1,676 nucleotides of DNA from Naegleria gruberi (taxonomy: Eukaryota). Under the pieces are notes generated by a model, which did no database searches, was not told where the DNA came from, and was given only the letters and a program-made list of their open reading frames with translations. Of this stretch, positions 1 through 1,676 are shown piece by piece. Both the position numbers and the translations under genes were made by a program. Each line of letters starts with the position of its first letter. Position 1 is the stretch's first letter. The stretch lies in the NCBI GenBank assembly GCA_000004985.1, contig GG739350.1; one strand, 5' to 3'.

Positions 1-111
1 ATTTGCCAATTCAGTCTGTCTATCATGCGAAACGTAAGACATCACAGGTCATTCCTCTTCGTGTCGATTTGATGGATGAAAGACATTGTGACAATTTGTC
101 TAGCAATGGTT

Positions 112-177
112 CTGATTGTGAATATTCGCAATAAACATTTATTTTACAGATATATAATTAATGAGCTGATTGTGAAT
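112..177 (+). repeat. 12-bp direct repeat ctgattgtgaat at 112-123 and 166-177 (54-bp spacing), flanking a TATATAA element at 150-156.
   Basis: Exact 12-mer seen twice. Expected chance occurrence in a 1.7-kb AT-rich window is low but not negligible, roughly 0.1-0.3. Confidence 0.3.
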
Positions 178-570
178 TACATTCTATCTCAATCAATTGA
201 AAAGATTTAGAAATAATAAATTGAATAGAGTGAGAATATATTACTGACAAGCTAACTTCTTCTAACGAGTTTCTAATCTCTTATTCATTGAATTTAATAG
301 TAAAGTATTACAAATATTAAAAGTAGAAGTTTCATAATTTTCTAAAATATCGGATATCCATGATTTTCACAAATTATACATTTAATATATAATAAACAAT
401 ATGAATTGTTGTTTTATTGTTGTTTGATTTGTAATTAGGCCATGAATCAACTCTGGTAGTATCAAATATCGGAACTTGGTAAATTGACAACATGATGAAA
501 ATCTGATAATAAATATGATGTTTATTATCTATTTAAATAGTAGTACTAAAAGACATGATTCAAGTTGGTG

Positions 571-601
571 AAGTACATGTTGAGTTATGGTCCATGTACT
601 T
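571..601 (+). repeat. Perfect inverted repeat / hairpin. Stem is aagtacatg (571-579) and catgtactt (593-601) with a 13-nt loop, followed by ttt. The arm motif acatgtac recurs as a third, direct copy at 613-620.
   Basis: The reverse complement of 593-601 equals 571-579 exactly. The stem can extend by a570:t602 and a g569:t603 wobble. The T-run is partly consumed by the stem and the stem is only about 33% GC, so as an intrinsic terminator it would be weak. Confidence 0.45.
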
Positions 602-840
602 TTTCAAAATTAACATGTACCTATCCCTATCATAACTTGTCCAAAATTGATCAGAGAAAGTTCTCCTACCTACTATTGACCATTCCGAACAATGATACAT
701 TGACAGTTTTCCAACTTGTCCAGTAGATTCAGCAGTGATAGTGATGATGAATTTAGTGACATTTCACCAAAGTTACAGTACTAAAAATTGATTTCCACAA
801 ATAATATTATTATTTTGATGGAAAACAATACGGTTACGCA

Positions 841-900
841 ATGAAGTGCAAGCAATTCTACAATGAAATGCAAGCAATTATTTTTTGAACTGCAACGAAT
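841..900. repeat. Degenerate tandem direct repeat: two 22-bp units (841-862 atgaagtgcaagcaattctaca; 863-884 atgaaatgcaagcaattatttt) plus a partial third copy (886-900 tgaactgcaacgaat). Consensus is roughly ATGAARTGCAASSAAT.
   Basis: Read directly from the sequence. Units 1 and 2 match at 16 of their first 17 positions. The third copy matches 12 of 15. A further weak echo, aatgaattgaaag, lies at 906-918. Confidence 0.6.
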
Positions 901-990
901 AATTTAATGAATTGAAAGTTTCTTGAACCACAATTCTTAAAATAGATCAAAGAGAAGTCACACTGTAAGATCAGCTTGATAATGAATTTG

Positions 991-1001
991 TTTATTATAT
1001 A
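991..1001 (-). promoter_or_regulatory. Putative 3'-end processing / polyadenylation signal for the minus-strand gene. The minus strand reads TATATAATAAA (a UAUAUA-type element fused to AAUAAA), about 45-55 nt downstream of the TGA stop.
   Basis: Plus strand 991-1001 is tttattatata, whose reverse complement is TATATAATAAA. The distance from the stop at 1046 is typical for a short eukaryotic 3' UTR. Only meaningful if the source is eukaryotic. AT-rich DNA produces such hexamers frequently by chance. Confidence 0.3.
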
Positions 1002-1045
1002 AGATATTTTGTATTGTTATTAAGATGATTGATCACTCTTCATGT

Positions 1046-1676
1046 TCATTGAATTTTCTTTCCGAAAATTGAATCCTCCCATGACTCATTAAATAATTCA
1101 TCTAATTCTTCGTCATAATCGCCAAGCTCAATTTTAGAGCTCTTCTTGGGTTCAGATTGAAAACCTTCTGATTCCGAAAGTGGGCTTTGTGGTTCAAATT
1201 CTACTACATGTAAATGTTTCAATCTAGCAACAAGTATAGCTCTGTAATTTGAAATAGAAAATGGTTTGGTCATAATATCGACGGCATCAGATAGTGAAAA
1301 TCCTGCTGAAAGAAAATCCATTAGTAATACACAATAATCACCACAATGATTTCCATCCACTTGAATTTTTTTTTGTAATGTTTTTCGAACAGTCTTTGGT
1401 TTTACAATAAATGATGGCAACATTTCAAATAATTCACTAGTCTCTGATTCTATCACTGAAAAATCCTTAGCGAAAGAATCAAAAAGAAACCAATCAGTGG
1501 ATTGACAATCATAGATTAGTAAGTACCATTGTAAATATTGTGAGCTGATTTTGGAAAAACAAATTCCAAATATATCAAAAGTATTTCCAGGTAAGAATAC
1601 AGTGTCATCTTTGATAGTCTCCAATGCCTCAGTAGATAAAGTGATTGAACAAGCAATTGTTTCTGTTGAAAGAACG
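1046..1676 (-). CDS. Ulp1/SENP-like (clan CE, peptidase family C48) cysteine peptidase catalytic domain protein. Partial: the ORF continues past the window edge at 1676, so the N-terminus is missing. Stop codon is TGA (plus 1046-1048).
   Basis: A six-frame ORF of at least 210 codons with no stop in roughly 70% AT DNA is very unlikely by chance, since stops would occur at about 0.08 per codon. The in-frame codons from 1625 to 1675 translate as ...VLSTETIACSITLSTEA with no stop, and the 'start' at 1622-1624 reads TTG, so the true start is outside the window. Motifs read directly from the translation: LQWYLLIYD (track residues 31-39) aligns with the Ulp1/SENP HW-x-L-x-[IV]-[IV]-D block; FLFDSF (D49) aligns with the [YF]-x-D-S-[LM] catalytic Asp motif exactly 17 residues after the HW position; IQVDGNHCGDYC (Q88, C94) aligns with the P-Q-Q-x-N-G-x-D-C-G-x-[FY] oxyanion-Gln / nucleophile-Cys block with the canonical 6-residue Q-to-C spacing; ISNYRAILVARL resembles the C-terminal helix RMRRFIAHLIL of yeast Ulp1. 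The Trp codons (W33, W45, W182) are all TGG. Confidence 0.75.
   Translation of the reverse strand, partial: VLSTETIACSITLSTEALETIKDDTVFLPGNTFDIFGICFSKISSQYLQWYLLIYDCQSTDWFLFDSFAKDFSVIESETSELFEMLPSFIVKPKTVRKTLQKKIQVDGNHCGDYCVLLMDFLSAGFSLSDAVDIMTKPFSISNYRAILVARLKHLHVVEFEPQSPLSESEGFQSEPKKSSKIELGDYDEELDELFNESWEDSIFGKKIQ

Follow-up and report, generated by a model that had tools for sequence, protein, structure and literature searches.

Does a protease-like reading frame of the heterolobosean amoeba Naegleria gruberi encode an enzyme whose catalytic histidine has been replaced by glutamine, or has the histidine been lost in some other way? The question arises from a stretch of 1,676 nucleotides (nt) on contig GG739350.1 (assembly GCA_000004985.1), which is referred to here, over its full length, as the window. 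A minus-strand open reading frame (ORF) in the window resembles Ulp1/SENP-type cysteine proteases (peptidase family C48), and carries Gln-Trp at the position of their His-Trp pair. A sequence-only reading of this DNA had described a catalytic His-to-Gln substitution and proposed a pseudo-protease, perhaps acting as a SUMO-binding scaffold, a recently inactivated transposon- or virus-borne copy, or a sequencing or strain variant. The apparent substitution is, as judged from an alignment with intact relatives, the scar of a 129-nt in-frame deletion, and the window very probably contains the 3' part of a young N. gruberi cut-and-paste transposon copy in which this internal deletion has cut the C48 domain. 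Sequence comparison establishes the deletion and its boundaries, the homology of the intact protein to C48 proteases and IS630-type transposases, and the youth of the copies. The window copy is, thus, an ordinary product of transposon decay, and not a selected pseudo-enzyme.

The sole long reading frame of the window lies on the minus strand, at 1046-1675, and is open at the right-hand window end. It consists of 209 codons followed by a TGA stop codon at 1046-1048, and the probability of 209 codons remaining open by chance in DNA with a GC content of about 30% is about 3e-8 (our own estimate, from base composition). The parts of this frame, and the codons on which the argument turns, are as follows:

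1046..1675, minus strand: 3' part of the transposase-C48 fusion ORF, with 100% identity to residues 669-717 plus 761-920 of XP_002669668.1 (P0007)
1529..1675, minus strand: residues 1-49, equivalent to P0007 669-717; N-terminal helical part of the C48 domain, ending in ...SSQYLQ (alignment to P0007 and to the metagenomic copy L001)
1528..1534, minus strand: deletion junction, with one hybrid TTACAAT repeat copy kept (comparison with L001)
1049..1528, minus strand: residues 50-209, equivalent to P0007 761-920; remaining C48 core, then an acidic C-terminal tail (P0007 alignment, SENP8 columns and structural model)
1529..1531, minus strand: CAA, Gln49 (translation)
1526..1528, minus strand: TGG, Trp50 (translation)
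1478..1480, minus strand: GAT, Asp66 (translation, aligned to YDS of SENP8)
1361..1363, minus strand: CAA, oxyanion Gln105 (translation, aligned to QQNSYDCG of SENP8)
1343..1345, minus strand: TGT, nucleophile Cys111 (translation, aligned to QQNSYDCG of SENP8)

The codon positions reported earlier, and the spacings of 17, 39 and 6 residues between the catalytic blocks, are present in the window as stated. The absence of any histidine before the aspartate was also borne out: histidine occurs in the visible ORF only at residues 110, 154 and 156, none of which is N-terminal to Asp66. The substitution itself did not survive comparison with the intact protein. In a scripted comparison, the window translation was found to be 100% identical to residues 669-717 of P0007 (XP_002669668.1, an N. 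gruberi protein of 920 amino acids (aa)) joined directly to residues 761-920. The residues absent from the window copy, 718-760, form a block of 43 residues, YIPSDFSQRVTNQSKKFIETNLPKSMKFTSKGFIIFPVARSLH (YIPSDF...FPVARSLH, ending in ...ARSLH), corresponding to 129 nt or 43 codons, in frame. The block ends with His760, the catalytic histidine within SLHW. What appears as Gln49 in the window corresponds to Gln717, with which the upstream ...SSQYLQ motif (kept as LQY in distant relatives) closes in the intact protein; its codon is also CAA in L001, and the deletion places it next to Trp761. The His column of the alignment and the 42 columns preceding it are, therefore, a gap in the window, and Gln49 aligns with Gln717 rather than with the histidine; P0001, P0007, P0008, P0002 and P0003 all have histidine in this column. 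The suggestion that a genuine histidine might be supplied by the unseen N-terminal region does not apply, this residue being absent from the window copy.

The boundaries of the deletion can be read in DNA from L001 (832 nt, from an ENA metagenome), in which the deleted segment is present contiguously. The window and L001 are identical over the 55 nt that end with the CAA codon. In L001, the segment begins with TACATACC, directly after TTTACAA, and ends with CATTACAC, directly before TGGTAC; the junction of the window copy reads ...TATTTACAATGGTACTT..., and the break can be placed at 1528/1529 or, given a 1-nt ambiguity, at 1527/1528. The deleted DNA is flanked by an imperfect repeat, TTACA(A/C)T, with 5 nt of exact microhomology and 6/7 matches overall. 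The junction mimics a single-base substitution because the left-hand repeat (TTACAA-T) encodes Leu-Gln and the right-hand repeat (TTACAC-T) encodes Leu-His. The deletion between these repeats was likely microhomology-mediated; internal deletions of Tc1/mariner elements arise between microhomologies of 6-8 bp, via abortive gap repair or microhomology-mediated end joining (PMC3814204). No second sequence with the deletion junction of the window was found in the protein, viral, metagenome and prokaryotic collections searched, the 90% cluster of P0001 has three members, none carrying the deletion, and an exact-product look-up of the window ORF returned no contig with an identical product.

The fold assignment stood for the lineage, which is truly C48 when viewed through its relatives, and not for the window ORF alone, which has no Pfam, NCBIfam or PDB match. 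Searches with this ORF gave only noise in Pfam, NCBIfam, PHROGs and PDB phmmer, with no match to PF02902 (Peptidase_C48) even at E<=10, and a word-indexed protein search found nothing; word-indexed searches with P0001 or with the family alignment returned only the query itself or P0003. When 1.84 billion representative proteins were searched exhaustively with phmmer, three real relatives emerged: P0001 (920 aa, 97% identical to the window ORF, in two separate matching stretches), P0002 (461 aa) and P0003 (215 aa, about 30% identical). Matches P0004-P0006 of the same search (E ~5e-4 to 9e-4) are low-complexity or repeat proteins, and were set aside as spurious. A tblastn search against phages found nothing, as did scans of viral, metagenome and prokaryotic genome contigs.

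The gathering score of PF02902 is 20.7 bits; the intact C-terminal domain of the 920-aa protein falls just below this cutoff (20.1 bits, E 6e-4), P0003 passes it (21.4 bits) and P0002 scores 18.6 bits. A family profile compared with the PDB matched SENP8/DEN1 (E 2.2e-5), followed by XopD, ChlaDub2 and SENP5, and the HW, DS and Q-x5-C columns of the family align to THW, YDS and QQNSYDCG of SENP8. The intact domain possesses the complete set His760/Asp777/Gln816/Cys822. The AlphaFold model of this 253-residue domain has a mean predicted local distance difference test (pLDDT) score of 63, with values of 77-88 in the core, and a predicted template modelling (pTM) score of 0.68. All 50 matches listed by a Foldseek search of the PDB with this model are clan CE proteases; SENP5 comes first (3e-7), and SENP2, SENP1, Ulp1 and Den1 are included. 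The lineage is, thus, a divergent but genuine Ulp1/SENP-type domain. The window copy has no profile match, lacks the histidine and keeps the Asp66, Gln105 and Cys111 columns. Its earlier description as a C48/Ulp1-type domain lacking the catalytic histidine holds, and it is best classed as a defective derivative of a C48 domain, as neither a member enzyme nor a selected pseudo-enzyme.

Two features of the active site vary or recur within the family. A histidine directly precedes the nucleophile cysteine (G-x-H-C-G-D) in all members (P0001, P0002, P0003 and the window, where His110-Cys111 occupy 1343-1348). This histidine is invariant and specific to the lineage. P0002 (L002:1119-2504) and P0003 (L003:671-1318) keep His, Gln and Cys and have serine at the catalytic Asp position, with ...VFSSFS... 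in these two proteins versus ...LFDSFA... in Naegleria. Either the third triad member is dispensable there, or P0002 and P0003 make use of another residue.

The deletion has removed much more than one catalytic side chain. The deleted residues are positions 51-93 of the 253-residue model, and comprise helices 54-58 and 62-71, the core strand 82-90 and His93, which starts the next strand. Strand 82-90 carries GFIIFPVAR, which we read as the probable counterpart of the C48 'vfiPin' motif, consistent with the SENP8 and XopD alignments; WYLLIYD is a strand of the C48 core remaining in the window ORF. When the window version was modelled with the same five-sequence alignment, mean pLDDT fell to 39.6 and pTM to 0.34, with no residue above 70, these values being measures of confidence and not of stability. 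Prediction confidence is low for the acidic C-terminal tail (roughly residues 157-209). With the core strand and the general base lost and model confidence collapsed, the window copy is very unlikely to yield an active or well-folded protease; its product is almost certainly protease-dead, and its C48 domain is probably misfolded. A single change of CAA to CAT or CAC, described earlier as enough to bring back the histidine, would not restore the enzyme, because two helices and the core strand are also gone.

The open frame of the window had been taken as a sign of retained selection. The copies are too young for this argument. Besides the deletion, 2 substitutions and one 3-nt indel in ~690 nt distinguish the window from L001, and DNA identity between copies is ~99.7%. 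The near-identical copies comprise two N. gruberi 920-aa proteins, the window copy and the metagenomic L001. The two proteins, XP_002668708.1 (P0001) and XP_002669668.1 (P0007), are encoded on different contigs, are both annotated as 'predicted protein', and differ at 4/920 residues; outside the gap, the window has 100% protein identity to its paralogue. The open frame is uninformative about selection for the deleted form, because the copies are too young to have gained stop codons.

L001:70-800, aligned with window positions 978-1583, lacks 6 nt (Arg-Ser directly before the His), has an extra TCT (Ser) in the acidic tail and shows 2 substitutions. Small in-frame indels seem to account for most of the divergence between copies of the family. 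L001 is unrelated to the window upstream of position 1583; either the copy is truncated or the contig is chimeric.

The evidence for a transposase comes from the intact paralogue, in a region outside the window. In the 920-aa protein, the NCBIfam model NF033545 (IS630) matches residues 220-492 with an E value of 1.4e-14 and 54 bits, against an equivalog cutoff of 100, and Pfam DDE_3 matches residues 442-514 with 23-26 bits versus a cutoff of 28.6. An acidic triad with DD34D spacing, D366 (VVFDETG), D466 (LLWDNLS) and D501 (SPLDNMC), can be recognized by inspection. A profile of the transposase region found nothing in the PDB, and P0001 alone gave only noise there (E >= 0.2). The metagenomic sequence L002 has the same layout, transposase followed by C48; its transposase is 43% identical, and its protease about 31% identical, to the N. 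gruberi counterpart. The transposase-C48 fusion is, on this comparison, conserved across a considerable distance, and its intact copies keep His, Gln and Cys.

The frame of L002:238-2504 is split into two overlapping ORFs, 238-1122 and 1119-2504, inside the transposase and just before the second catalytic Asp; the frame change near 1119 may reflect a true frameshift, a small intron or a mistake in assembly. A SAP-type DNA-binding motif (LTMKNVKFLKEFLKSEFGETGGNLRKDALVAKLVTRI) was noticed by eye at about residues 85-120 of P0001, outside the window; it had no Pfam match at E<=1 and is unconfirmed.

No convincing inverted repeats were found in the window, which can hold one element end only, or in L002 and L003, and the similarity between the 3' flanks of L002 and L003 ends at the stop codon. 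A cut-and-paste IS630/Tc1/mariner transposon is the best reading because there are near-identical copies, an IS630-type transposase and an internally deleted derivative. N. gruberi has been reported to contain very little transposon DNA, 0.28% (bioRxiv 10.64898/2026.06.24.734286).

The rest of the window (1-1045) is non-coding in appearance, with 20-33% GC and a longest ORF of <=53 aa, and tRNA and Rfam scans of the window gave no match. It falls into two parts:

978..1045, minus strand: non-coding, 68 nt past the stop codon, common to the window and L001 (identity to L001 ends at ~978)
1..977, no strand assigned: AT-rich sequence, 20-33% GC, with no ORF >53 aa and several short tandem repeats (ORF, composition and repeat scans)

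The shared 68 nt are probably a 3' untranslated or subterminal part of the element, and the remainder may be either more of its non-coding end or flanking DNA. Tandem repeats are found downstream of the ORF at 840-911 (22 nt x 3.3), 191-236 (24 nt x 1.9), 987-1026 (21 nt x 1.9) and 405-429 (11 nt x 2.3). These could be subterminal transposase-binding repeats or mere AT-rich low complexity.

The history of the window copy may be reconstructed as follows. The element encodes a single long protein, an IS630/Tc1/mariner DDD transposase with a C-terminal Ulp1/SENP-like clan CE cysteine protease. In one copy, a deletion occurred between two similar short sequences, probably by slippage or abortive gap repair at the microhomology. 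Residues 718-760 were thereby lost, with two helices, the core strand bearing the conserved 'fiiFPv' motif and the catalytic histidine, and the upstream glutamine was brought directly before the tryptophan of the 'HW' motif, resembling a point substitution. In the intact element, the N-terminal part would be expected to bind and cut the element ends, like other Tc1/mariner transposases, and the C48 domain would presumably strip SUMO, NEDD8 or ubiquitin either from the transposase itself or from repair or chromatin factors of the host, where excision or integration takes place. An equivalent function, so far untested by experiment, has been put forward for the Ulp1 and OTU domains found in Ginger1 transposases and in Mutator-like elements (MULEs) (PMC2836005). 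The ubiquitin-like protein (Ubl) that would serve as substrate is not readable from the sequence; NEDD8-specific SENP8 is the top profile match, by a small margin.

Several points weigh against this account. The repeat copy retained at the junction has the left-hand A and the microhomology is not perfect, so that the mechanism is suggestive only. The boundaries were read from a near-identical metagenomic copy and not from the genomic DNA of the annotated genes, and in this copy, too, a short stretch is missing, of 6 nt directly ahead of the His codon. The upstream part of the window copy, with the transposase half, lies outside the window. The term 'transposon' draws on transposase homology and near-identical copies; no element ends were found, neither terminal inverted repeats nor the TA target-site duplication expected for this superfamily. 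A low-confidence AlphaFold model is no proof of unfolding. Finally, a product identical to that of the window is not on record, and reads would be needed to exclude an assembly error strictly.

A bolder version of the transposon account would see in these sequences an undescribed heterolobosean IS630/Tc1/mariner lineage in which an active C48 protease is permanently fused to the transposase and needed for transposition, the window being an expressed natural protease-null allele. This is unlikely, with a small but real chance of being correct; if true, it would provide a ready-made separation-of-function variant for transposon-borne Ulp1 domains. Less probable again is an intact true locus, with the deletion arising as an error of assembly or sequencing or representing a rare somatic or clonal variant. 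The window is short and ends inside a gene, like a small contig of a repeated element, and, as stated, its product has no identical counterpart on record. However, the gap is exactly 129 nt and in frame, its flanking similarity of only 5-7 nt is far below the k-mer of a repeat-collapsing assembler, both sides are clean and identical to other copies, and cut-and-paste elements normally end up with deletions of this kind (PMC3814204).

It is more doubtful still that the in-frame deletion copy has gained a new function, as an active protease-less transposase or as a dominant-negative regulator like internally deleted repressor copies. The frame is kept through the deletion to the normal stop codon, and transposase and protease are separate domains, both of which would suit such a role. 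However, one third of random deletions are in frame, so the preservation of the frame is weak evidence, no second copy with the deletion was found in the collections searched, and the upstream half of the gene is unseen.

The reading from which the question started, a full-length C48 domain with its His codon mutated from CAY to CAA and kept by selection as an inactive pseudo-protease or Ubl-binding scaffold, has become scarcely credible. It has in its favor the Gln-Trp pair at the His-Trp position, correctly spaced to Asp, Gln and Cys, and the ORF open for 209 codons. Against it, 43 residues are missing at exactly this point by comparison with two annotated paralogues and one DNA copy, and Gln49 and the preceding 55 nt are identical to the upstream Gln717 context. 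The missing segment is also present in the 31%-identical P0002 and P0003, which speaks against an insertion peculiar to the other copies. The histidine is kept by all other members of the family that were found, leaving the scaffold idea without support, the model of the deleted domain collapses, and the open frame is accounted for by the DNA identity of ~99.7% with other copies. Equally hard to credit is the idea that an intron accounts for the missing 129 nt, the window being derived from a transcript or representing a processed copy: an internal segment has indeed been removed cleanly and in frame, but its ends (TACATA...TTACAC or ACATAC...TACACT, and GTGTAA...TATGTA on the other strand) are not GT..AG on either strand, even with the 1-nt ambiguity allowed, so it is no spliced intron, and it encodes the conserved fold core and the catalytic histidine and is present in protein models and distant relatives.

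The internally deleted transposon copy, thus, remains the best explanation. The observation made in the sequence-only reading is partly confirmed, and its interpretation is partly supported through one of the options that it offered, a recently inactivated transposon-borne ULP copy, which proved essentially correct. An in-frame deletion between similar short sequences can fake a change of catalytic His to Gln, and, because a deletion scar can mimic a substitution in this way, pseudo-enzyme calls need an alignment with intact relatives before they are trusted.

Several known systems resemble parts of this arrangement. In internally deleted transposons (Ds from Ac, deleted P, Tc1 and mariner elements, and the miniaturization of the Tc1/mariner element Ozma; PMC3814204), as here, a deletion bounded by short direct repeats is found in a young, near-identical copy; the window deletion differs from these in being small (129 nt), in frame, confined to an accessory protease domain and associated with imperfect microhomology. 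Among cellular C48 proteases, SENP8/DEN1/NEDP1, SENP1/2/5 and yeast Ulp1 are the best profile and fold matches, and their His, Asp, Gln and Cys columns align with those of the intact paralogue. The Naegleria domain shares only 11-17% identity with cellular enzymes in structural alignments, has HCG where SENPs, Ulp1 and XopD have DCG, and is attached to a transposase, and the window copy lacks the histidine and 42 further residues.

Transposon-borne C48 domains present in many copies, many of them degraded, are also known from ULP-carrying MULEs (Kaonashi/KI-MULEs of Arabidopsis, and those of melon and rice) and from CryptonF and CryptonS of oomycetes (PMC2836005, PMC3212892), and Ulp1 domains are carried by MULEs of plants, hydra and lancelet (PMC2836005). 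MULEs and Cryptons belong to other transposon superfamilies, whereas the Naegleria C48 domain is fused to an IS630/Tc1/mariner-type transposase; in Cryptons, the peptidase occurs alongside a tyrosine recombinase, and in CryptonS it is an additional protein (PMC3212892). Ginger1, from Hydra and other organisms, also combines an N-terminal DDE-type transposase and a C-terminal pfam02902-type protease in one protein (PMC2836005). It, too, is a multi-copy cut-and-paste element, the protease of which is presumed to act in the SUMO or ubiquitin pathway. Its own transposase is related to Gypsy integrases, whereas the Naegleria family matches IS630/DDE_3 with DD34D-like spacing and has a heterolobosean amoeba as its host. 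A literature search, which had Repbase-type catalogues outside its scope, found no description of a C48 domain on an IS630/Tc1/mariner transposase or of the Naegleria family; this fusion may be undescribed so far, and public records already list the proteins, as 'predicted protein'. The copy in the window amounts to ordinary transposon debris, and the modest wider interest lies in the architecture of the family, a further independent case, beside Ginger1, MULEs and Cryptons, of DNA transposons with Ubl proteases.

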